Sequence record: HM035025
DNA: 64,000 bases
Source of the DNA: Shigella phage Shfl2
Reading direction: 5' to 3' (one strand)
Part shown: positions 4,901 through 61,047 of the stretch, in pieces
Position numbering within the stretch: the stretch's first letter is position 1
Layout: each line of letters opens with the position of its first letter
Program-made: the position numbers and the translations under genes
The notes under the pieces: model-generated
Told to the model about the DNA's origin: nothing
The model's input: only the letters and a program-made list of their open reading frames with translations
The model's database searches: none

Positions 4901-5188
4901 TTACCATTTATGATGATACATACTTACGATGCATTCAAGACCCAAAGGATTCTTGAAAATATCATATTCAAGAGGACCTTTTTCTGTTTCAATAAAGAAA
5001 TCAAAATTTACTGTATTAAATTTACGGTCTTCCTTTACTAATTTAACTTGAGAAGATGAACGGTCAATGTAAACCTTTTCAACTTCAAAACATGTTAAAA
5101 TGCCATAATCATCGATCAAGGCTTTAGCTGCTTCTTGATCATATTTATATCCATTTTCAATGGATGATACTTTCGCATAAAGAATCAT
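4901..5188 (-). CDS. Hypothetical protein, 95 aa, third gene of early operon in IPI locus
   Basis: Track ORF; ATG at 5186-5188 with AGAGG RBS inside upstream gene; 2-nt gap to upstream stop. Confidence 0.5.
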   Translation of the reverse strand: MILYAKVSSIENGYKYDQEAAKALIDDYGILTCFEVEKVYIDRSSSQVKLVKEDRKFNTVNFDFFIETEKGPLEYDIFKNPLGLECIVSMYHHKW

Positions 5189-5190
5189 TA

Positions 5191-5601
5191 TCAGCCTCTA
5201 TCAACGATAGTATGAGTATGGGCATTTACGATTTGCCACCAGTCGAAACGATTGGAACCATAATCTGGTTTATTTTCATTTTCTTTAATGATATCACGCA
5301 GCTTATCTTCTGTTTCAGCATACGCAATTAAATCATCATACCCACCGCAAGGATAATAATTATCACCTGCGAATAAAAGAAAATTTACCTTAGATGGATT
5401 TACGTAATAATGGTCTTTAGGATATTTAGTTCCTCTCCAATCAGTTACTTCAACATAACGGTAAGAAAATCCATTTTTACTTTCAATCCAACTCCACGCT
5501 TCAAAAGGAGTATTAAAAACTCTATCAGGTATTAAATTACCTTCAAAATGAGAAGGATTTGCATAATCCCCGGCATAAACATAATATTCGTTAATACTCA
5601 T
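5191..5601 (-). CDS. Hypothetical protein, 136 aa, Tyr/Trp-rich
   Basis: Track ORF; ATG at 5599-5601 with GGTGA RBS; adjacent to upstream stop. Confidence 0.55.
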   Translation of the reverse strand: MSINEYYVYAGDYANPSHFEGNLIPDRVFNTPFEAWSWIESKNGFSYRYVEVTDWRGTKYPKDHYYVNPSKVNFLLFAGDNYYPCGGYDDLIAYAETEDKLRDIIKENENKPDYGSNRFDWWQIVNAHTHTIVDRG

Positions 5602-51617: not shown

Positions 51618-52712
51618 ATGGCAATTGTTAAAGAAATAACTGCTGATTTAATTAAAAAGTCCGGTGAGAAAATTTCAGCCGGACAGAGTACTAAATCAGA
51701 AGTAGCAACTAAAACATACACTGCCCAGTTTCCAACTGGGCGTGCTAGTGGTAATGACACTACAGGGGACTTCCAGGTAACAGATTTATATAAGAATGGA
51801 TTATTATTTACTGCATACAATATGTCATCTAGGGATTCTGGAAGTCTTAGATCGATGAGATCTAACTACTCTTCTTCATCTTCGAGTATTTTAAGTACAG
51901 CTAGAAACACTATTAGTAGTACAGTATCAAAACTATCAAATGGATTAATATCAAACAATAATTCAGGAACAATAAGTAAAGCTCCTGTGGCAAATATTCT
52001 TTTACCGAGATCTAAATCTGATGTTGATACATCATCACATAGATTTAATGATGTTCAAGAAAGTCTTATCAGCAGAGGCGGAGGTACTGCTACTGGCGTG
52101 TTAAGTAATATTGCTTCAACTGCAGTATTTGGTGCGCTAGAAAGTATAACACAAGGTATAATGGCTGATAATAATGAACAGATTTATACGACAGCCAGAA
52201 GTATGTATGGCGGTGCTGAGAATAGAACTAAAGTGTTTACATGGGATTTGACTCCACGTTCAACAGAAGATTTAATGGCTATTATTAATATCTATCAATA
52301 TTTTAACTATTTTTCTTATGGTGAAACGGGTAAATCTCAATATGCTGCTGAAATAAAGGGGTATTTAGATGATTGGTATCGTTCTACGTTAATTGAACCT
52401 TTATCTCCGGAAGACGCGGCTAAAAATAAAACACTATTTGAGAAAATGACATCGAGTTTAACTAACGTTCTAGTAGTTTCAAACCCGACAATTTGGATGG
52501 TGAAAAACTTTGGTGCAACATCTAAGTTTGATGGAAAAACGGAAATATTTGGCCCATGCCAAATACAGAGCATCAGATTTGATAAAACACCTAATGGTAA
52601 CTTTAACGGATTAGCTATTGCTCCAAACCTCCCTAGTACATTTACTCTTGAGATTACTATGAGAGAAATTATCACGTTAAACCGTGCTTCTTTATATGCG
52701 GGGACTTTTTAA
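51618..52712 (+). CDS. 48: Gp48 baseplate tail tube cap, 364 aa
   Basis: Length and synteny match T4 gp48. Confidence 0.9.
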   Translation: MAIVKEITADLIKKSGEKISAGQSTKSEVATKTYTAQFPTGRASGNDTTGDFQVTDLYKNGLLFTAYNMSSRDSGSLRSMRSNYSSSSSSILSTARNTISSTVSKLSNGLISNNNSGTISKAPVANILLPRSKSDVDTSSHRFNDVQESLISRGGGTATGVLSNIASTAVFGALESITQGIMADNNEQIYTTARSMYGGAENRTKVFTWDLTPRSTEDLMAIINIYQYFNYFSYGETGKSQYAAEIKGYLDDWYRSTLIEPLSPEDAAKNKTLFEKMTSSLTNVLVVSNPTIWMVKNFGATSKFDGKTEIFGPCQIQSIRFDKTPNGNFNGLAIAPNLPSTFTLEITMREIITLNRASLYAGTF

Positions 52713-53677
52713 TGTATTCTTTAGAGGAATTTAATAATCAAGCAATAAACGCAGATTTCCAACGTAATAATATGTTTAGCTGCGTTTTTGCGACAACTCC
52801 ATCAACTAAAAGCTCTTCGTTGATAAGTTCAATTAGCAACTTTTCTTATAATAACTTGGGTCTAAATTCAGATTGGTTAGGATTGACTCAAGGCGATATT
52901 AATCAGGGAATTACCACGCTAATTACTGCTGGCACACAAAAACTGATAAGAAAATCAGGGGTTAGTAAATATCTTATTGGTGCCATGAGTCAACGCACAG
53001 TTCAAAGTTTATTGGGCTCATTTACAGTTGGTACATATTTAATTGATTTCTTTAATATGGCATATAACTCATCTGGATTGATGATATACTCTGTAAAAAT
53101 GCCAGAGAATAGATTATCCTATGAAACTGACTGGAACTATAATTCTCCTAATATTCGTATAACTGGGAGAGAATTAGACCCTTTGGTTATTTCATTTAGA
53201 ATGGATTCAGAAGCTTGTAACTATCGTGCAATGCAAGACTGGGTTAACGCTGTTCAAGACCCAGTAACTGGATTGCGTGCTTTGCCGCAAGATGTCGAGG
53301 CAGATATTCAGGTTAATCTTCATGCTCGTAATGGATTACCTCATACTGCTGTGATGTTCACTGGATGCATTCCAGTGTCAGTGAGTGCTCCTGAGTTATC
53401 ATATGATGGAGATAACCAAATAACTACATTTGATGTTACTTTTGCGTATAGAGTCATGCAGGCTGGGTCGGTTGATAGACAAGCTGCGCTTGAATGGCTT
53501 GAATCTGCTGCCATAAACGGTATTCAAAGCGTTCTCGGAAATAGTGGAGGTGTTACTGGACTATCTAATTCGCTTTCACGACTTAGTAGATTAGGAGGAA
53601 CTGCTGGAAGCATTTCAAACATTAATACTATGACGGGAATTGTCAACTCGCAAAGTAAAATATTAGGAGCAATATAA
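52712..53677 (+). CDS. 54: Gp54 baseplate tail tube initiator, 321 aa
   Basis: Length and synteny match T4 gp54. Confidence 0.9.
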   Translation: MYSLEEFNNQAINADFQRNNMFSCVFATTPSTKSSSLISSISNFSYNNLGLNSDWLGLTQGDINQGITTLITAGTQKLIRKSGVSKYLIGAMSQRTVQSLLGSFTVGTYLIDFFNMAYNSSGLMIYSVKMPENRLSYETDWNYNSPNIRITGRELDPLVISFRMDSEACNYRAMQDWVNAVQDPVTGLRALPQDVEADIQVNLHARNGLPHTAVMFTGCIPVSVSAPELSYDGDNQITTFDVTFAYRVMQAGSVDRQAALEWLESAAINGIQSVLGNSGGVTGLSNSLSRLSRLGGTAGSISNINTMTGIVNSQSKILGAI

Positions 53678-53679
53678 CA

Positions 53680-53706
53680 ATGGGGACCTTTCGGTCCCCA
53701 TATTTT
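53680..53706. terminator. Bidirectional terminator hairpin UGGGGACCUUUCGGUCCCCA between gene 54 and alt.-3
   Basis: Hairpin at 53680-53699 followed by TATTTTTATTT. Confidence 0.65.
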
Positions 53707-53996
53707 TATTTACGGAATGAAATAAAAGCAGCAACTGAAGCAACTAAACTGTCTTCAATATAAACTTCAATTTTTACCGGAGCTTCTGACTCAAATTTAC
53801 CTGTTACTACACCTTGGAAAATGCTTTCAGTCTGCTCTGGCTTTGAAAAATTTTCAGAAGGAAAAATTCCGAACTTTTTATCTGTTCCAAAAATTTTGAT
53901 AAATTCATCATAAACTGCTTCATTAAAAGCATTATCAGCAGGAATAACGCCTTCAACTACAAGTTCTTGACCTAAAAAGCGCAAAGAAGATTTCAT
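53706..53996 (-). CDS. alt.-3: Hypothetical protein, 96 aa (T4 alt.-3 position)
   Basis: Track ORF; synteny in the 54-alt interval. Confidence 0.6.
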   Translation of the reverse strand: MKSSLRFLGQELVVEGVIPADNAFNEAVYDEFIKIFGTDKKFGIFPSENFSKPEQTESIFQGVVTGKFESEAPVKIEVYIEDSLVASVAAFISFRK

Positions 53997-54056: not shown

Positions 54057-56114
54057 CTACATCTTGAACTTTTTAGACATTCCGTTGATGTTAACCAAAG
54101 AAGCCAAGATTTGAGAAACTTCGTTTTCCTCTTCTTTTGATTCTTCTACAAGGAATTGATTAAACCCAGCCATTGGACGAACTTCACCAGTTTCCATCAG
54201 ATGATCGCCATCATATACCGATTCTTCTAATTGTTCAGAAGGAGGAACGATTGTGCCTTCGATTAGATACTTGTTATAAGCAGTTTCTTTCATCATGTAC
54301 GTGCTTACTTTATTAATCTTCAACAAAATTCCACGCGGTAAAATAACTTCAGCTTCTGATGGAAATCCTGATAAATGACCTGGAACGATAACTTTGATTC
54401 GCTCAGCCCCTTTAATTACCATACCTACGCTAGTTTCAGCATCTTCATTAGCATATGCAGAATGACTACCCATATGCATTAAATCTTCAGCATCAACGGA
54501 ACCTTCTCCTTCACCAGAAAATACTGCACCGGAATCATCTAGAGCCATATAGTTTTTACCATGCTCACCGAAGATATTTGGTTTAAGCGATGTTGATACG
54601 AAGTTCTTGAAATAGAACATTTTATTTTCAATATTATGACGTAAAGTTTTAAAGGTAACTTCTTGTCCACGGTAAAGTGTAGTTCCCGGAGGAAGAACTG
54701 ATCCTTTGGCGAATGCAGAATCCAGCGTCTCGATGTGTTTAATAGCTCGTTCCATGTATTCTTCACGGGTAGAATCTGGTTTACCCAAGAGGAACGAGTT
54801 CATTTCAACATATGAATCTGCACAATAATCTTCAATTACATCAGACTCAGCCTGAGTCAGTCCTTTTGGAGTTACTTCGGTGCTTGCGTATTCATATGCC
54901 TGAGCAGCAGATTCATTAATCAATTTATAAATGCCATTCATGACAAATTGAATAATAGCTACCTTTTCGTCTGGCGTGGCTTTAGAACCTTTAACTAAAT
55001 CATTGATAATTTTCTTAATAATATCAAAGCTATTAGAAATATTAATGTCAGCGAGATCGCTCAAAATTTTATCGGTTTTATAATCAAAGAATTCTTTATT
55101 CTTTAAATATTCTTGAGAACCTTGATATGTTATATCGCTCTGCAGCTTGATAGATGGATCACGTAAACGTGCATGGGCCAATGCAATATGATTTCGGAAG
55201 CTTTCTAGTTCATAATCATTAGATTTAAAACGAGAAGCACTCCTCATACCACCGATAGCTCCTTTGCCGAAGTTTGAACCAATCTGAATAACGCCAGAGT
55301 TCATTGGTCCTTCTGCTTTATATACCGGAACTTTAGATTCAAACTCTTGATATTTCTTAGCGGCGAAGCTATCACCCTGAAGTGAAGCATCGACAGTAGA
55401 ATATTGAGCTTGTGCTGCTAATCGACGACTAATTTTAGTTTTCTGAATAACAGCTTGATCCGTGCGCTTATCATTTTCTAGAGCAATAGAAGCGGCAACA
55501 GCAACAGCTTTAGGAACAGCATTACCTGTTTTAACGTCTACATAAACATCACCAACCTTTGATTCAACTTTTGTGAATAACTCAGTTGAAATAGGAGGTA
55601 CACCTGGAATGTCTTCTAAATTAGCATTTTTACGATAAACCATAATATATGCATACTTTTTATCATAGTCCCAGATTTCCTTTAAAAGAACATATCGACC
55701 TGCTCCTTTAGTACGTACTAAACGGTCAGCAATAACTTGCATTTGACGAGCAGCGCCATTTGTTTTACTTTTTAGTACGCGGAATAGGCATGCGTCAATT
55801 TTATACTGTTTCATTGTTTGAAGAGCAGTATCAAAAACCGCATTAATGACACCAATTGGATTTCCACCCAAGTTTTTAAGTTTAACTAATGATAGTTTCT
55901 CATTAACACCTATCATTACGATATGCATCATTTTATCGCCTGGCTTAACGTTTTTATTTGTATCACCGCCAGAGGTGTATGTACAAAATCTAAATCCAGG
56001 AAGCACACTTTCTTCACCGGCTTGAATAGCAAAAATTTGAGGTATTTTATGCTTAGGATTTAAGTTAACAACCGGCGCCGAAGCGCCGTCAAATAATTCT
56101 GTAATAAGTTCCAT
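54057..56114 (-). CDS. alt.-2: Alt-paralogue ADP-ribosyltransferase, 685 aa (probable T4 alt.-2 equivalent)
   Basis: N-terminus MELITELFDGASAPVVNLNPKHKIPQIF parallels Alt; C-terminal ART R-S-E motifs (YRGQ, STSL, EAEVILPRG). Confidence 0.75.
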   Translation of the reverse strand: MELITELFDGASAPVVNLNPKHKIPQIFAIQAGEESVLPGFRFCTYTSGGDTNKNVKPGDKMMHIVMIGVNEKLSLVKLKNLGGNPIGVINAVFDTALQTMKQYKIDACLFRVLKSKTNGAARQMQVIADRLVRTKGAGRYVLLKEIWDYDKKYAYIMVYRKNANLEDIPGVPPISTELFTKVESKVGDVYVDVKTGNAVPKAVAVAASIALENDKRTDQAVIQKTKISRRLAAQAQYSTVDASLQGDSFAAKKYQEFESKVPVYKAEGPMNSGVIQIGSNFGKGAIGGMRSASRFKSNDYELESFRNHIALAHARLRDPSIKLQSDITYQGSQEYLKNKEFFDYKTDKILSDLADINISNSFDIIKKIINDLVKGSKATPDEKVAIIQFVMNGIYKLINESAAQAYEYASTEVTPKGLTQAESDVIEDYCADSYVEMNSFLLGKPDSTREEYMERAIKHIETLDSAFAKGSVLPPGTTLYRGQEVTFKTLRHNIENKMFYFKNFVSTSLKPNIFGEHGKNYMALDDSGAVFSGEGEGSVDAEDLMHMGSHSAYANEDAETSVGMVIKGAERIKVIVPGHLSGFPSEAEVILPRGILLKINKVSTYMMKETAYNKYLIEGTIVPPSEQLEESVYDGDHLMETGEVRPMAGFNQFLVEESKEEENEVSQILASLVNINGMSKKFKM

Positions 56115-56117
56115 GAT

Positions 56118-58211
56118 TTATCCTTGAACGAACTTGTAAGGCATGTTTGCAATATCTATGCAAGACGCAATAATTCCAAGAGATGATTCTACTTTTTGTT
56201 TAACATTTGATGAAACAAATGATGCAAAGTCAACTCTGTCTTCTATTTCAATATCACCTGTCATTGCAACTACTTCACCAGTTTCCATTAGACGGTCACC
56301 GTCATAAATTACCGATTCGGTGAGTTCTTCGGTGGTCATAACTTCAGCTTGAATGAGTTTTGTATTATTAGACGTGGTTCCGTCATTATTAGAAGCATCA
56401 GTTATTTTATTAACTTTGACCATCAATCCACGTGGTAGAATAACTTCAGCTTCTGTTGCTATTCCGAGACTTCCTGGATATATAACATTAACTTTATGAG
56501 CTCCATCAATTGCCCATCCTATTTGAACTTTAACGTATTCAGGATTTTCTTTATACGCTCTTATTTCGTTTGGATTAATAGTTATTCCTTCTTCATTTTT
56601 ATCAACTGTCAATTCATTACGAGCTTCTGGTTCTAAAAGACCAATACCAGCATGTGTAATTCCAAAACGTCCAAAAATGATAGGAGTTAAAGAAGTAGAT
56701 ACAAAATTTCTGAAATAGAACACTTTATTTTTAACTAGTGCTTCGTATATAGGAGCAGTCATGCTTTGAGCACGATAAACTGTAATGCCTTCTGGTATAC
56801 GGTCACCATTTTCAAAAGCTGAATCTAAGTTATTTATAGCAGATTCAATTTCTTTTTCACTCATTACATCATATCGTTCTGGATTGTAACGACCCAAAAG
56901 AAGATTATTGATGTCAGTATATCCTGAACCACAATACTCTCTAATGCCGCGCTTTTGTGATGGAGTATATTTAGAACCATCACGGGCAATAGTAATATCA
57001 ATCATTGGACCTGCACCAATTCCAGAAAAACTATAAATCATTCGTTTGAGGAATTTAGTTTTTGCTGCGTTCCAGGAATTTTTAGTTATTTCTTCCCAGA
57101 CTTCATCTGGCTGCCCTTTACGAGTTTTATTATGTTTATCAAGCCATTTATCTTTGTATTCTTCAAAGAATTTATTAACAGCTGCTGCGTATTTCTCTAA
57201 ACATTTTATTGAAGTAGTTGGTTCATTTTTAATCGCATTAAGAATTACATCTTTAATTTTTTCAGAAACTTCATTAACCTCACTTTTTGAAAAGAATTTA
57301 TAGTCATAATGAAGTTCATCTGCAGTTCCTTCAGCAATAATTTTTGCTGCTTTAGTTTTAGAAGCTAATGAATTAATTCCAAGCTTCATTTCTTCTGCTT
57401 CGGGAATTAAAGGAGCGGTAGCAGGTTTATTGAAATTAGCTGCGGTAGATTCATACTTCTGGAATAATTCACTTTCAAATCTAGAAGATTCCAATGATTG
57501 ACTTTGCGCAATTGCTCTACGGGAAATTTTAACTTTAACGATTACAGCTTGGTCAGAACGCTTATCATTTTCTTGCGCAATAGATGCTGCAATTGCCTCA
57601 TTTTTAGTTACTTGGGCTCCAGTATCTTTATTGATATAAACATCACCGACTTTCGATTCAACTTTAGTAAAGAGCTCGGTACTAATTTCCGGAACTCCTG
57701 GAATGTCTTCTAGTGATACATTTTTGCGATGTATAAGAATATATGCATACTTTTTATCATAATCCCAGAGTTCCTTAAGAAGGACGTATCTGCCACCTGA
57801 ACGACTACGGATAAGTCTATCAGCAATAACTTGAATTTGTCGAGCTTGACCAGCAGTTTTAGACTTAAGAATACGGAGCATACAGGCATCAATTTTATAC
57901 TGACGCATAGTTTGCATTGCAACAGTAAAAACTGAATTGATATAATTAATTGGGCTTGGACCAAGACCTTTCAATTTAGCAATTGAACCTTTAGCAGTTA
58001 ATGTAAAAGGAACAATATGCATCATTTTATCGCCCATTTTTAAATCGCGATTAGTATCACCTCCAGATGTATAGGTACATAAACGAAAGCCTGGTTGTTC
58101 AATTGCGTCATCAACATGAACTGAAAAAATTTGTGGTATTTTCTTCTTTGGATTTAAGTTTGTAATCGGAAGAGTAGTATCTTCGTCAAATAATTCTGTA
58201 ATGAGTTCCAT
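56118..58211 (-). CDS. alt: Alt, packaged ADP-ribosyltransferase (modifies host RNA polymerase alpha)
   Basis: Matches recalled T4 Alt N-terminus MELITELFDEDTTLPITNL; ART motifs YRAQ, STSL, EAEVILPRG; second ATG chosen (track 56118..58214). Confidence 0.9.
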   Translation of the reverse strand: MELITELFDEDTTLPITNLNPKKKIPQIFSVHVDDAIEQPGFRLCTYTSGGDTNRDLKMGDKMMHIVPFTLTAKGSIAKLKGLGPSPINYINSVFTVAMQTMRQYKIDACMLRILKSKTAGQARQIQVIADRLIRSRSGGRYVLLKELWDYDKKYAYILIHRKNVSLEDIPGVPEISTELFTKVESKVGDVYINKDTGAQVTKNEAIAASIAQENDKRSDQAVIVKVKISRRAIAQSQSLESSRFESELFQKYESTAANFNKPATAPLIPEAEEMKLGINSLASKTKAAKIIAEGTADELHYDYKFFSKSEVNEVSEKIKDVILNAIKNEPTTSIKCLEKYAAAVNKFFEEYKDKWLDKHNKTRKGQPDEVWEEITKNSWNAAKTKFLKRMIYSFSGIGAGPMIDITIARDGSKYTPSQKRGIREYCGSGYTDINNLLLGRYNPERYDVMSEKEIESAINNLDSAFENGDRIPEGITVYRAQSMTAPIYEALVKNKVFYFRNFVSTSLTPIIFGRFGITHAGIGLLEPEARNELTVDKNEEGITINPNEIRAYKENPEYVKVQIGWAIDGAHKVNVIYPGSLGIATEAEVILPRGLMVKVNKITDASNNDGTTSNNTKLIQAEVMTTEELTESVIYDGDRLMETGEVVAMTGDIEIEDRVDFASFVSSNVKQKVESSLGIIASCIDIANMPYKFVQG

Positions 58212-58234
58212 CATATCCTCTCTAGTGTTTATTC

Positions 58235-58245: not shown

Positions 58246-58265
58246 TTAAAGGCCCGAAGGCCTTT
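58246..58265 (-). terminator. Terminator hairpin AAAGGCC-UUCG-GGCCUUU after alt.1
   Basis: Sequence read at 58248-58265, overlapping the alt.1 stop codon. Confidence 0.55.
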
Positions 58266-58452
58266 AGTAATCTAGTGGTAAGAGAGTACGATATATTTCA
58301 AACTTTGGTCCTTTTTCATAGGCATCAAATGTTTCTGTAAATTTATTATAAGCGTATGCATCTACAAATTCGAGAATGACTTGTGATACAGAAGTAGAAA
58401 CATCTCCACCTTCTTTTTGAGCAATGACAATTGTTTCTAAGTAAGCTTTCAT
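58264..58452 (-). CDS. alt.1: Hypothetical protein, 62 aa (T4 alt.1 position)
   Basis: Track ORF; synteny between alt and gene 30. Confidence 0.6.
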   Translation of the reverse strand: MKAYLETIVIAQKEGGDVSTSVSQVILEFVDAYAYNKFTETFDAYEKGPKFEIYRTLLPLDY

Positions 58453-59912
58453 AGACCAGTTACCTCATGAAAATCACCAAATACATCCTCGAATGTATTA
58501 GCTTTAGTTTTATCTTCACGTAAACGAATCGCAATCGGAAGAAATAATTTAACGTAATCAGTGCGGCCATCAGATTTTAACCAACCGTTGCATTCGCACT
58601 CTAGAATTTTTCCAATATAATAATTTTGGTTTTCCATAATGCGAGTACGGTCAAGCTCATGTGATTTTACGCCGGCTTTATCTTTTAAGCCTGAACCAGC
58701 ATTTACTTTAATTTTTCCACACTCTGACTCAAGAATAAATCCACCCGCTTTGGTAGGGTCTTTACGGTGAGGATAAATTCCTACAATTTTTAAATCAACA
58801 TCAATTACTTCTTTAAATTTATAAAGATTTTTTGAACGAGCATTTTCCCATAATCCATCGATATTTTTGAGAATAATACCTTCAAGACCTTGGTCAATAT
58901 ACTTTTTATAAATTACCTTAGCTTCATCTAGGTTATTTACTATCTGGTTTTCAATTAAAATTACTTTATCATAACCTGATGTCATTTGTTCTAGTTTAGA
59001 AAAACGTACATCATATTTCAAACGAAATGCAGGAAGACCGTATATTTCTACCAACGGGACATAATCCCAGACCTGAAACTTCATGCATTTGGCTTCTTTT
59101 TCGGAAATGGTTCCTTTTAAGGATTTATTGGCGATTCCATTAGAAGCAGTACGAGATTCCGCTACTTCGGCGAATTCTTTAGCTTTACTAATTTCAGGAT
59201 AAGCATCAAAAAGAAAATCTAGGCCTTCTGGTTCCTTTTTAACTTGCTCATGGTATACCAATTCGCCATCAATTAACACACCTTCTGGATGAATCTGACG
59301 AGCTTCAGCAGTCATTTTAATTAACTCTTCCTTAAGAAGATCTAATCCTAGATATTCATTACCAGCTCGTGATAAAAGACGAACATCATCTAATTCATCA
59401 CCTCTAACTTCAGCAAAACACCGAGCTCCATCTGCTTTTAACTGCGCAAAGGCTGGAAACTTGATATTCTTATTAATGCCTTTTTCATCATAAGAACTTG
59501 CCAGCATTTGAGGTTGTTCAGGAATTAAACCTGGCCAAACTTTGTTTGCAATAGATACTGAAGCACCGCATTCAAGGTCTCGCATCATCACTCGACGCAA
59601 AACTTCAACATCATCTTTTTTACCGTCAGCAATATATCCAGTCAATTCCTCAATTGCCGCATTTCCAGTCAATTTCCGAGTAGCTAATGTGAATTCAATG
59701 AAGTCAAGCATATCGGTAAGAGTCAACATTCCAAAACTCTGGGTAGCAATACCAGGTTTAGGCCATTTCTTGATATAATACTGTAACCCACGAGAATAAG
59801 TCAGACGATATACTCGTTTAAGCAATTCATTATCTTTATTCTTTTCAAGAATTGCTTGCTTCTGCTTAGTTGAACCAATAGATGCTATTTCATTCAGAAT
59901 TTTAAGAATCAT
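58449..59912 (-). CDS. 30: Gp30 ATP-dependent DNA ligase, 487 aa
   Basis: Matches recalled T4 DNA ligase; adenylation motif KADGARC; length 487 aa. Confidence 0.95.
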   Translation of the reverse strand: MILKILNEIASIGSTKQKQAILEKNKDNELLKRVYRLTYSRGLQYYIKKWPKPGIATQSFGMLTLTDMLDFIEFTLATRKLTGNAAIEELTGYIADGKKDDVEVLRRVMMRDLECGASVSIANKVWPGLIPEQPQMLASSYDEKGINKNIKFPAFAQLKADGARCFAEVRGDELDDVRLLSRAGNEYLGLDLLKEELIKMTAEARQIHPEGVLIDGELVYHEQVKKEPEGLDFLFDAYPEISKAKEFAEVAESRTASNGIANKSLKGTISEKEAKCMKFQVWDYVPLVEIYGLPAFRLKYDVRFSKLEQMTSGYDKVILIENQIVNNLDEAKVIYKKYIDQGLEGIILKNIDGLWENARSKNLYKFKEVIDVDLKIVGIYPHRKDPTKAGGFILESECGKIKVNAGSGLKDKAGVKSHELDRTRIMENQNYYIGKILECECNGWLKSDGRTDYVKLFLPIAIRLREDKTKANTFEDVFGDFHEVTGL

Positions 59913-60178
59913 TGTTCATCCTTTAGAGTTTGGTTTACAGCTCTATTATAAATCAATTCATCATTAAGCTCAGGCAAAGACTTATGATATGTAGTTCTAA
60001 CTTTATTTCCTTGCATCCAGTGCTTGACGTAAATGAAACCTTGCTCTACACATTTTTTAAAAATTCGTTCGTCTTTTTGAGCTCGGAATTCTGGATTGCA
60101 TCTAAAAAATTGATTTACGTGACCGTAATCACGTGTAGTATTACCTTCATTTTCATAAATAGTGTGAACAACAAACAT
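59909..60178 (-). CDS. 30.1: Hypothetical protein, 89 aa
   Basis: Track ORF; first of nine ORFs between gene 30 and rIII, matching T4 30.1-30.9 by count and order. Confidence 0.65.
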   Translation of the reverse strand: MFVVHTIYENEGNTTRDYGHVNQFFRCNPEFRAQKDERIFKKCVEQGFIYVKHWMQGNKVRTTYHKSLPELNDELIYNRAVNQTLKDEQ

Positions 60179-61047
60179 TAGAATGCTCCTTGGAAAATAT
60201 TATCACCACTACCACTAGTAAGTCTATTAAAATACCCTGCATCACCAGGCTTAGTATAACTCCACGTATGAAATGGATTCATATGATACGGGTGTGTATA
60301 ATATGGATTATATGGATGTGTATAATATGGATTATACGGATTAAATCCAGGAGTTCTCCAGGTAGTGTTCCAACGAAAAGAATCGTTTTTAACCATCTTC
60401 TCAATTACATCTTTTATAGCTTTTTCACTATCAAAACTTTCTTTATTTTCCTTCGGTGAAAAAAGCTTATTTTCTACATCATTCCATGTATAAACTCGCT
60501 GCGCAGTTTTTGGAATATTGTCACGCTCTCCTCGAGCCATCCAATAAACAGGAACATTTAATATTTCACTCGCATGATCGCAGTGGTAAGCAAGATCGTC
60601 AATGTAACAAATTACGTTATATTTCTCTTTTGCCTTTTTGAACAACTCTTCTTTTGAAGAATCATGACCACACATCATTACTTCTGAGAAGGCACCAGGA
60701 AAAAGAGCATTCAAATTAAATTGACGATTCAACAGAGCGTCAATAGAATCACCCAATGCTGTAACAGCTACAAAATTATAATCTTCTTTTAATTTGTTAA
60801 TTACACACAGTGCATCTTTATATGGAGACAAATAACGAATAAAATCTGATCGATTATATTTTTCAATTAACTTGACACCAAGTTCTTCATCACAATTAAA
60901 GAGTTTACCCGGAGAAATAAATTTCTCATCTTGGATCATTTTTAAAATATGTTCTAACGGAAGATTATATTTCTGAGCAAAATAAGGAAGGCCTGATTGC
61001 CAGCTTAAACATACTCCATCAATATCAGTCAAAATAGTAGGCTTCAT
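60178..61047 (-). CDS. 30.2: HAD-like hydrolase-fold protein with C-terminal Pro/Tyr-rich tandem repeat, 289 aa
   Basis: N-terminal DIDGV motif (HAD DxDG); C-terminal NPYNPYYTHPYNPYYTHPY. Confidence 0.65.
   Translation of the reverse strand: MKPTILTDIDGVCLSWQSGLPYFAQKYNLPLEHILKMIQDEKFISPGKLFNCDEELGVKLIEKYNRSDFIRYLSPYKDALCVINKLKEDYNFVAVTALGDSIDALLNRQFNLNALFPGAFSEVMMCGHDSSKEELFKKAKEKYNVICYIDDLAYHCDHASEILNVPVYWMARGERDNIPKTAQRVYTWNDVENKLFSPKENKESFDSEKAIKDVIEKMVKNDSFRWNTTWRTPGFNPYNPYYTHPYNPYYTHPYHMNPFHTWSYTKPGDAGYFNRLTSGSGDNIFQGAF
60288..60338. repeat. Tandem 24-nt direct repeat inside 30.2 coding region
   Basis: GTGTATAATATGGATTATA core repeated twice on plus strand, encoding the duplicated octapeptide. 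Confidence 0.6.

Follow-up and report, generated by a model that had tools for sequence, protein, structure and literature searches.

Alt of phage T4 is a packaged and injected mono-ADP-ribosyltransferase, present in about 40 copies per head and cut at ITE-6 and LTE-619 (PMC5694885; PMC9026906; PMC2988021), the cleavage at ITE-6 having been mapped in one of these studies (PMC5694885). T4 alt is a late gene (PMC9697503), and mutation of the second glutamate of the E-x-E motif abolishes Alt activity (PMC11404850). ModA and ModB of T4 are paralogous ADP-ribosyltransferases (ARTs) of the same clade and phage group, which illustrate target diversification (PMC5512222; PMC10468400). Duplications of alt were described in Aeromonas phage 44RR by Nolan et al. 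2006 (PMC1524935), and a 2026 paper proposes that Alt paralogues have diverged in their targets (PMC13600099).

In the window analyzed here (the whole stretch of 64,000 nucleotides), the ORF list contains two neighbouring minus-strand genes of this family. ART-A (56118-58211, 697 aa) occupies the position of T4 alt with a variant central and catalytic region, while ART-B (54057-56114, 685 aa) is the intact form of a gene kept in T4 only as alt.-1 and alt.-2. The two genes are 3 nt apart and lie between gene 30/alt.1 and alt.-3/gene 54, exactly the T4 order. Their products align over the full length at 42% identity (BLASTP, E=2e-163), far above chance, and the first-pass annotation was correct in calling them tandem Alt-family paralogues; the motifs that it quoted (MELITELFD, IPQIF, CTYTSGGDTN, DKMMHIV, YRGQ/YRAQ, STSL and EAEVILPRG) all occur in both proteins. 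Its naming of a downstream and an upstream copy is right in plus-strand window coordinates but reversed with respect to transcription, where the T4 alt orthologue comes first, next to the promoter, and the relative of alt.-1/alt.-2 lies downstream of it. ART-A and ART-B both score above the gathering score of 23.4 for Pfam PF03496 (ADPrib_exo_Tox; 72.8 and 128.8 bits) and align end to end with phrog_802 (“Alt-like RNA polymerase ADP-ribosyltransferase”; E=5e-256 and 4e-273). By their motifs they are assigned to the Alt/VIP2-type (R-S-E) ADP-ribosyltransferases of the E-x-E kind, which are usually arginine-specific.

The proteins have a common architecture, consisting of a propeptide of 6 residues that ends in ITE, a conserved N-terminal module of ~235 aa, a variable helical region, the ART domain, and a C-terminal tail starting at an L-x-E-S gp21 site. 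Identity between the paralogues is 68% in the N-terminal module, 18% in the central region and 35% in the ART region. Measured in 40-column alignment windows, it ranges from 52-82% over aa 1-235 to 10-20% over ~aa 240-440 and 20-52% across most of the ART domain, with a minimum of 8% at a variable insert ahead of the ARTT loop. The pairwise alignment thus confirms that the paralogues diverge in the centre; for the accompanying claim that this region sets target recognition in Alt, no support was found in the literature searched.

The overall identity of ART-A to T4 Alt (NP_049811) is 70%; it is 100% for aa 1-240, falls to 10-40% in the stretch ~aa 260-440, and reaches 72-90% at the C-terminus. 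ART-A is orthologous to T4 alt by position but represents another allele, so that its earlier description as a match to T4 Alt holds only for the ends and not for the central and catalytic part. Its N-terminal module (57498-58211, aa 1-238), whose homologues contain PF26846 (Tevenvirinae_ADPRT), begins with the propeptide MELITE, including the gp21 motif ITE-6 at 58194-58202. Like all gene features below for which no other strand is given, these lie on the minus strand. Alignment places the catalytic Arg480 in YRAQ (56772-56774), followed by the S-T-S motif at aa 505-507 (56691-56699) and the E-A-E motif (E587 and E589; 56445-56453), which belongs to an ARTT loop, G-I-A-T-E-A-E, lacking an aromatic residue. 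An L-T-E-S sequence at 56313-56324 aligns with the C-terminal gp21 cleavage site of T4 Alt, LTE-619.

In ART-B the N-terminal module (55401-56114, aa 1-238; ITE-6 motif at 56097-56105) is followed by a central region (54870-55400, aa 239-415) that is the most divergent part of the protein and all-helical according to the structural model, and by the ADP-ribosyltransferase domain (54240-54869, aa 416-625). The corresponding catalytic residues are Arg482 in YRGQ (54669-54671, by alignment), S-T-S at aa 507-509 (54588-54596), and E-A-E (E587 and E589; 54348-54356) in an ARTT loop, G-F-P-S-E-A-E, with the canonical aromatic residue. The catalytic arginine, both serines and both glutamates are invariant among 21 family members and intact in ART-A and ART-B; neither copy has lost the catalytic glutamate, as E587-A-E589 is present in both. 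L-E-E-S (54219-54230) aligns with LTE-619 of T4 Alt and precedes a conserved Y-D-G-D-x-L-M-E-T-G-E (54183-54215) in which the core Y-D-G-D, E, G and E are invariant. ART-B therefore keeps both gp21 processing motifs mapped in T4 Alt, and the two paralogues have the conserved tail residues Y-D-G-D...E-x-G-E in common. For ART-B, the ART fold is modelled with confidence; the C-terminal tail (aa 630-685) has a pLDDT below 50, so that the model says nothing structural on the processing site.

ART-B is under purifying selection. Its dN/dS is 0.08 against phage A2 and 0.13 against a 74%-identical orthologue, the latter value being approximate because dS (1.47) is near saturation; by part, it is 0.04 for the N-terminal module and 0.17 for the central region. 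The breakup of the T4 counterpart into alt.-1 and alt.-2 might suggest that ART-B is likewise a decaying duplicate, inactive or on its way to a pseudogene. That is highly improbable and already contradicted by the sequence data, given the intact 685-codon frame with all catalytic motifs, the occurrence of ART-B at no less than 90% identity in ~400 phage records, the dN/dS of 0.08-0.13, and the confidently modelled fold.

The relationship to the T4 fragments, which occupy the same place between alt and alt.-3, is close: ART-B aa 1-56 are 95% identical to alt.-1 (NP_049810) and aa 62-116 are 98% identical to alt.-2 (NP_049809). The proposed correspondence to alt.-2 was therefore well founded, and it extends to alt.-1. 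Compared with the intact gene, the T4 sequence carries a -1 frameshift in an A5 run and lacks 1,699 bp between two copies of the 9-nt microhomology ACTTTTTAG, found here on the plus strand at 54068-54076 (left copy) and 55767-55775 (right copy). The annotation of alt.-1/alt.-2 as “an old duplication of the first part of gene alt” is rejected; they are remnants of a full gene after this frameshift and deletion. T4, having lost the second gene, is the odd one out and in a derived state, and the two-gene state in the window looks ancestral.

A T4-type late promoter, TATAAATA, lies at 58242-58235, 31 nt before the ART-A ATG (motif start to ATG), as the first-pass annotation had noted for the T4 alt-like copy. 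This sequence occurs 22 times in the window (9.1 expected). The late promoter ahead of the first ART gene is kept in every locus examined, at 31-36 nt (motif start to ATG) in T4, T2, T6, Shigella phage A2, ECML-134, L004 and L008 and at the corresponding place in L003. Directly upstream of it, a terminator-like hairpin (58247-58266; 8-bp stem with 4 GC pairs, then a T-rich tail) straddles the alt.1 stop codon. ART-A has two tandem ATGs, the first of which would give an ORF of 698 aa (56118-58214); the ATG at 58211 is the likelier start because the GAGG core of the Shine-Dalgarno sequence GAGAGGA (58216-58222) has a spacer of 5 nt to it, as against just 2 nt for the ATG at 58214. The Shine-Dalgarno sequence of ART-B, AAGGA (56121-56125), is located inside the last ART-A codons, 6 nt before the ART-B ATG. 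No late promoter is found directly upstream of the ART-B start, and no terminator-like site between the two genes, ART-B being the second cistron. Expression of ART-B therefore requires either a long bicistronic message with read-through translation or a second TATAAATA inside ART-A (56831-56838, 724 nt from motif start to the ART-B ATG). This internal copy, present in the window, A2, T2 and T6 and absent from T4 and L003, tracks the ART-A allele and could be a putative internal late promoter or a chance match. A bidirectional terminator hairpin at 53680-53701 ends the alt/alt.-3 transcripts and the converging gene 54 transcript.

We hold with moderate confidence that the two genes form a bicistronic late ART pair whose products are both packaged, trimmed by gp21 and injected, with a target set for ART-B that overlaps that of Alt only in part. 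The locus is the alt region of a T-even (Tequatrovirus) genome, apparently in the ancestral form, where the single late promoter probably drives a message with ART-A first and ART-B second; ART-B has a ribosome-binding site of its own, which overlaps the stop codon of ART-A. As with T4 Alt, both proteins would be incorporated into the prohead core, processed at either end by the gp21 protease, and delivered into the host together with the DNA, and would ADP-ribosylate host proteins before any phage gene expression. That ART-B enters virions and has a host target of its own, as first suggested, is plausible. ART-B might instead be made late and stay outside heads, acting in the producing cell on late host or phage proteins or on a late-acting defence. 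ModA and ModB are ARTs of the same clade that act unpackaged (PMC2988021; PMC5512222), and in the literature we found no transcript or proteome data and no direct virion evidence for ART-B, nor any virion mass spectrometry of two-copy phages. Such a role is nevertheless improbable: the ITE-6 propeptide, an N-terminal module under strong constraint (dN/dS 0.04) and the L-x-E-S site placed at the C-terminus by alignment are features of packaged Alt that a cytoplasmic enzyme does not need, and a B body behind an A N-terminus is the sole ART of some phages.

The latter genes also bear out the expectation that the repeats recombine. Natural A::B fusion genes occur in ECML-134 and in four metagenomic variants, with five different junctions between the A N-terminus and the B body. 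ECML-134, L004 and L008 have no ART gene besides the fusion, so that one N-terminal module can take the place of the other. The ECML-134 crossover maps to the longest exact run between the paralogues, 24 nt encoding YDKKYAYI (57738-57761 in ART-A, 55644-55667 in ART-B). Either module is thus dispensable, T4 having lost B by frameshift and microhomology deletion and ECML-134-type phages the A catalytic part by A::B recombination. T4 grows well without ART-B, and the ART-A catalytic module is absent from ECML-134, which fits redundancy as well as specialisation.

The catalytic modules represent different, old lineages. Members of the B lineage (ART-B, the second alt of Dhakavirus JS10 and others) have [F/Y]-x-x-E-x-E in the ARTT loop, whereas the A lineage has no aromatic residue at that position. 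In C3- and iota-type toxins this residue has an established part in the choice of substrate; for Alt no such role is established. In JS10 (YP_002922543 / YP_002922542), A likewise lies upstream of B, between alt.1 and alt.-3. Its B-type catalytic region is 57% identical to that of ART-B, compared with 35% between ART-A and ART-B, whereas the N-terminal modules of JS10 and ART-B agree at only 45% of positions, compared with 68% for ART-A and ART-B. The N-terminal module therefore tracks the phage lineage, and the catalytic module tracks the paralogue lineage. The two catalytic lineages have been maintained together since before Tequatrovirus and Dhakavirus separated. A packaged and injected ART-B could still be a redundant copy, retained for dose or robustness, that acts on the same main targets (Arg265 of RNA polymerase alpha and other known Alt substrates). 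In favor of this, viable phages can dispense with either module and both proteins have the E-x-E motif typical of arginine-specific ARTs. T4 Alt and ModA, moreover, already overlap functionally on alpha Arg265 (PMC2988021). We regard redundancy as a less likely but serious alternative, since identity is only 35% in the catalytic and 18% in the helical region, the ARTT loops differ in a way specific to each lineage, and the long retention of both lineages under purifying selection is unusual for purely redundant copies. A target set of ART-B that only partly overlaps that of Alt is most likely because the catalytic lineages are old and different and their ARTT substrate-recognition loops differ.

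Among known systems, the C3, VIP2, iota, CDTa and Vis toxins are bacterial ADP-ribosylating toxins of the same R-S-E clade; the phage proteins differ from them by an N-terminal module specific to phages, by processing tails for delivery in the capsid, and by the lack of toxin translocation components. ModA and ModB are small proteins expressed early; they are not packaged and have neither the N-terminal module nor the gp21 sites. ART-A resembles T4 Alt in its place after alt.1, its late promoter, its R/STS/ExE motifs and its ITE-6 and LTE gp21 sites, and differs in its replaced central and catalytic region and its ARTT loop; ART-B has the entire architecture in common with T4 Alt (42% identity) and differs in its catalytic lineage and aromatic ARTT residue. 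The gene pair is found in ~400 sequenced phages, including T2, T6 and JS10. The 685-aa ORF is annotated “alt.-1” in T2 (AYD82791) and “apparent insertion in alt.-2; also similar to alt” in T6 (AXN58232), and hundreds of Tequatrovirus records are annotated “Alt-like ... (x2)”. These phages have the same pair in the same order and sizes (2094 + 2058 nt), with 97-98% DNA identity across the locus among the best matches listed. The tandem arrangement is normal for T2, T6 and hundreds of relatives, already annotated and discussed in the 2006 and 2026 papers, and the window, which shows no difference of substance from these pairs, is one further instance.

The two tandem minus-strand genes in the window are predicted to be full-length members of the Tevenvirinae Alt family, N-terminal module included, and, from their profiles and motifs, to be R-S-E ADP-ribosyltransferases of the Alt/VIP2 clade. 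We designate the promoter-proximal gene ART-A and its paralogue, second in transcription, ART-B. The proteins align over their full length at 42% identity (E=2e-163), and every motif cited in the first-pass annotation, which had called them tandem Alt-type paralogues, is found in both. PF03496 (ADPrib_exo_Tox; gathering score 23.4) gives 128.8 bits for ART-A and 72.8 bits for ART-B, phrog_802 (Alt-like ADP-ribosyltransferase) matches both end to end (E=4e-273 and E=5e-256, respectively), and database proteins near-identical to the pair are annotated with PF26846 (Tevenvirinae_ADPRT) and PF03496. No NCBIfam family matches either protein, and searching the N-terminal and central regions against Pfam at lenient settings gave nothing meaningful. 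The catalytic motifs are Y-R480, S505-T-S507 and E587-A-E589 in ART-A and Y-R482, S507-T-S509 and E587-A-E589 in ART-B. Loss of the catalytic glutamate, which had been named as an observation that would count against a second enzyme, is not seen in either copy, since the R, S-T-S and E-x-E motifs are intact and the arginine, both serines and both glutamates do not vary across 21 aligned family sequences. The published catalytic mutant Alt E577A (PMC11404850) falls in the E-x-E motif that we count as E574-M-E576 in NP_049811 (5455-7503 of the T4 genome, NC_000866), so the numbering in that study seems to be shifted by one residue relative to the reference protein.

An AlphaFold model of ART-B (pLDDT 76, pTM 0.67) has an alpha/beta fold in its N-terminal domain, then a long stretch of helices, then an ART domain, and the ART fold agrees with membership of the R-S-E ADP-ribosyltransferases. 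A PDB sequence search gave no match for ART-B and weak matches alone for ART-A, to CDTa and iota over ~70 residues; to our knowledge, no Alt structure has been solved. Per 40-column window, the paralogues share 52-82% identity across the first ~235 residues and mostly 20-52% in the ART domain, falling to 8% in a variable insert before the ARTT loop. The lowest broad stretch lies at the centre (10-20%), bearing out the central divergence that had been proposed from the sequence alone.

The window comes from the genome of a Tequatrovirus (T-even phage); its best 24-kb match is Citrobacter phage CrRp10 (97.5%), and the ART locus alone is closest to Shigella phage A2 (98.4%). DNA ligase gene 30 (58449-59912), alt.1 (58264-58452; 62 aa, Pfam Phage_blade), ART-A, ART-B (54057-56114; a 685-aa ORF) and an alt.-3 homologue (53706-53996; 96 aa, DUF5498) form a minus-strand set that converges on the plus-strand baseplate genes 48 (51618-52712) and 54 (52712-53677). 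The ART-A ORF spans 56118-58214 (698 aa) from the first of two tandem ATGs, and of the two ATGs the one at 58211 alone is well spaced from the Shine-Dalgarno sequence GAGAGGA (58222-58216); translation from it yields 697 aa and agrees with the end coordinate first assigned to the gene. The pair lies between gene 30/alt.1 and alt.-3/gene 54, and has the same placement in phages A2, T2, T6 and JS10; the T4 minus-strand order is 30, alt.1, alt, alt.-1, alt.-2, alt.-3. Upstream of the pair, alt.1 and the ligase stop codon overlap by 4 nt (58449-58452), and a gp30.2-like protein (289 aa, 60178-61047, minus strand) has as its C-terminal end the short tandem peptide repeat NPYNPYYTHPYNPYYTHPYHMNPF. 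C-terminal extension mutants of T4 Alt.-3 evade the CmdTAC defence system (PMC11618068).

ART-B shares just 42% identity with T4 Alt, and its closest T4 relatives are the fragments alt.-1 (95% over aa 1-56) and alt.-2 (98% over aa 62-116). This near-identity and the collinear flanks identify ART-B as the orthologue of alt.-1/alt.-2. The assignment of the downstream copy to T4 Alt, with a late promoter, and of the upstream copy to alt.-2 thus holds in plus-strand coordinates, but the two are inverted along the direction of transcription. In a 95% alignment, T4 DNA runs with the window from gene 54 across alt.-3 as far as 54076 and resumes at 55767. The T4 junction falls within the 9-nt repeat ACTTTTTAG, copies of which lie at 54068-54076 and 55767-55775 in the window, so exactly 1,699 bp are absent from T4. 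T4 has also lost 1 nt from an A5 run at codon ~54, and the resulting frameshift splits alt.-1 from alt.-2; the whole remnant region occupies 5066-5451 of the T4 genome. The alignment shows T4 to carry a pseudogene, a full-length gene disrupted by a 1,699-bp microhomology deletion and a -1 frameshift. The T4 record describes instead "a duplication of the first part of gene alt", which is ruled out by the presence of both the frameshift and the deletion in a full-length gene, and the "apparent insertion in alt.-2" of the T6 record has the direction of the event wrong, the change being a deletion in T4.

ART-B itself is under purifying selection. Its dN/dS relative to a 74%-identical orthologue, likewise one of a tandem pair, is 0.13 overall and 0.04, 0.17 and 0.16 in the N-terminus, centre and ART domain, respectively, although dS is near saturation in this comparison; against phage A2 it is 0.08. 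That ART-B is a pseudogene is ruled out by these low ratios and by the modelled ART domain.

ART-A occupies the T4 alt position and is 70% identical to T4 Alt overall, in a mosaic pattern: aa 1-240 are 100% identical, identity falls to 10-40% at about aa 260-440, most of the ART core stands at 50-77% and the variable insert preceding the ARTT loop at 19-42%, and the C-terminus reaches 72-90%. This pattern identifies ART-A as a different allele of alt. About 315 phage-collection records carry the ART-A allele at 90% identity or above, and about 211 fall at 60-80% identity, the T4-type allele and JS10-type A genes among them. At least two alt alleles exist in Tequatrovirus; their ends are identical, and the central and catalytic region between the ends has been replaced. 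Since dS between ART-A and T4 alt is about 1.1-1.5 in the middle and 0.11 in the N-terminal part, the allele difference points to module replacement by recombination, and ART-B co-occurs with both alleles.

Recombination between the paralogues is also apparent. Five variants of A::B fusion, with an ART-A-type N-terminus and an ART-B-type body, were found in four metagenomic database proteins (P0003, P0004, P0005 and P0007) and in phage ECML-134, with crossovers near residues 40, 100, 155, 185 and 220. Three of the switches are clean in the DNA and lie in short runs shared by the paralogues, of 24, 11 and 8 nt, the 24-nt run being the longest exact match between ART-A and ART-B. ECML-134 (JX128259, 2742-4802) and loci L004 (6001-8055) and L008 (3501-5561) each have no ART gene other than the fusion between alt.1 and alt.-3; in two further fusion loci, L005 and L009, the contig ends before the rest of the locus is visible. 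Such loci indicate repeated unequal recombination between the tandem copies. The fusions and their differing crossovers support the idea that the direct repeats make a recombination hotspot, yet the paralogues share only 67.5% DNA identity overall in their first 720 nt, and the ECML-134 crossover class is rare, with 3 records in a junction-specific search that counts this class only (the coverage statistic is inflated by paralogous extension). The fusions further imply that N-terminal modules are interchangeable, and the region-by-region identities fit. The ART-B N-terminus is 68% identical to ART-A and 45% to the JS10 B-type protein, whereas its central and ART regions are 45% and 57% identical to JS10 B-type and 18% and 35% to ART-A. 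The N-terminal and catalytic modules have differing evolutionary histories.

The tandem pair is the ordinary and previously annotated state of the T-even alt locus. ART-B is found at 90% identity or above in about 400 phage records, and the whole locus is at least 80% covered in 341, many labelled "Alt-like RNA polymerase ADP-ribosyltransferase (x2)"; both T2 and T6 have the pair. The Dhakavirus JS10 has the tandem arrangement of the window, A-type upstream and B-type downstream, so the duplication is older than the divergence of Tequatrovirus and Dhakavirus. As early as 2006, Nolan et al. counted both alt.-1/alt.-2 and full-length copies of alt among paralogous duplications (PMC1524935), and a 2026 paper describes two Alt-like Tequatrovirus paralogues at 43% identity and suggests diverged targets (PMC13600099). 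Our literature searches for virion proteomics or biochemistry on the second Alt paralogue, including virion proteomes of two-copy phages, found none. The small additions made here are the origin of T4 alt.-1/alt.-2, the A::B fusion genes, and the separate histories of the N-terminal and catalytic modules.

T4 alt is a late gene (PMC9697503). In the window, the late-promoter motif TATAAATA (58242-58235, minus strand) comes just after a hairpin that straddles the alt.1 stop codon, with 31 nt from motif start to the ART-A ATG. The motif is kept in T4, T2, T6, A2, the fusion loci and locus L003. ART-B has no such motif close to its start; it follows ART-A after a 3-nt gap, the final codons of ART-A contain its Shine-Dalgarno sequence AAGGA, and no terminator-like site separates the genes. 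Most simply, ART-B would be the second cistron of the ART-A late message. A second perfect copy of TATAAATA inside ART-A (56838-56831, minus strand), 724 nt from motif start to the ART-B ATG, could be a dedicated late promoter for ART-B, or a coincidence. It tracks this ART-A allele, being kept in A2, T2 and T6 and absent from T4 and L003. A sigma-70 promoter scan of the region was not above chance (27 found, 24.3 expected) and is therefore given no weight, except for a strong early-type match before the alt.-3 homologue (54056-54028, TTTACA-17-TATAGT with a TG extension), which would be that gene's own.

T4 Alt is a prohead core protein of about 40 copies; the head protease gp21 cuts it at ITE-6 and LTE-619, and it enters the host together with the DNA (PMC5694885, PMC9026906, PMC2988021). 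The two gp21 sites were mapped in T4 (PMC5694885). Both paralogues have ITE at aa 4-6, and at an aligned C-terminal column ART-A has LTE-S (630-633) and ART-B LEE-S (629-632), a site at which all 21 family members fit the pattern [LIM]-x-E-[SA]. In both, Y-D-G-D-x-L-M-E-T-G-E follows the C-terminal motif, with its Y-D-G-D, E, G and E residues invariant. Gp21 processing motifs are thus present at both ends of both paralogues, and cleavage is predicted. We infer late expression and virion delivery of ART-B.

With rather less than even confidence, we propose that ART-B is a second virion-delivered ADP-ribosyltransferase with substrates unlike those of Alt, placed behind an exchangeable "head delivery cassette"; its substrates would then possibly include host defence or stress proteins. 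The lineage-specific cassette would consist of the shared ~235-aa N-terminal module and two gp21-cleaved ends, behind which catalytic modules of different ancestry would have been swapped by recombination. Distinct substrates for the two enzymes are argued against by the viability of T4 without ART-B and of ECML-134 without the catalytic part of ART-A. The MazF toxin is a reported target of T4 Alt. Within the Alt family, T4 Alt alone is known to ADP-ribosylate Arg265 of RNA polymerase alpha (PMC2988021). The first-pass annotation was largely right on gene identity and is unproven on function.

Almost all knowledge of phage-injected ADP-ribosyltransferases comes from T4, which lost ART-B, a gene kept under purifying selection in about 400 sequenced relatives, the classical T2 and T6 included. 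If the proposal of a second enzyme behind a cassette holds, T4 under-represents the range of enzymes that its own genus injects. Were ART-B packaged and possessed of its own targets, most T-even phages would deploy two injected enzymes, not one, in the first seconds of takeover, and some of the ways in which T4 differs from T2/T6 in host range or defence sensitivity could trace to ART-B. The ARTT loop may bear on such targets. All members of the ART-B-like lineage have an aromatic residue there, in the form [F/Y]-x-x-E-x-E (G-F-P-S-E-A-E in ART-B), and the ART-A-like lineage is without one (A-P-S-N-E-M-E in T4 Alt, G-I-A-T-E-A-E in ART-A). Given this difference and the very low similarity of the helical regions, ART-A and ART-B most likely act on partly distinct substrates. 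The aromatic residue of ART-B and its lineage is as in the C3- and iota-type toxins, in which the ARTT loop contributes to substrate choice.
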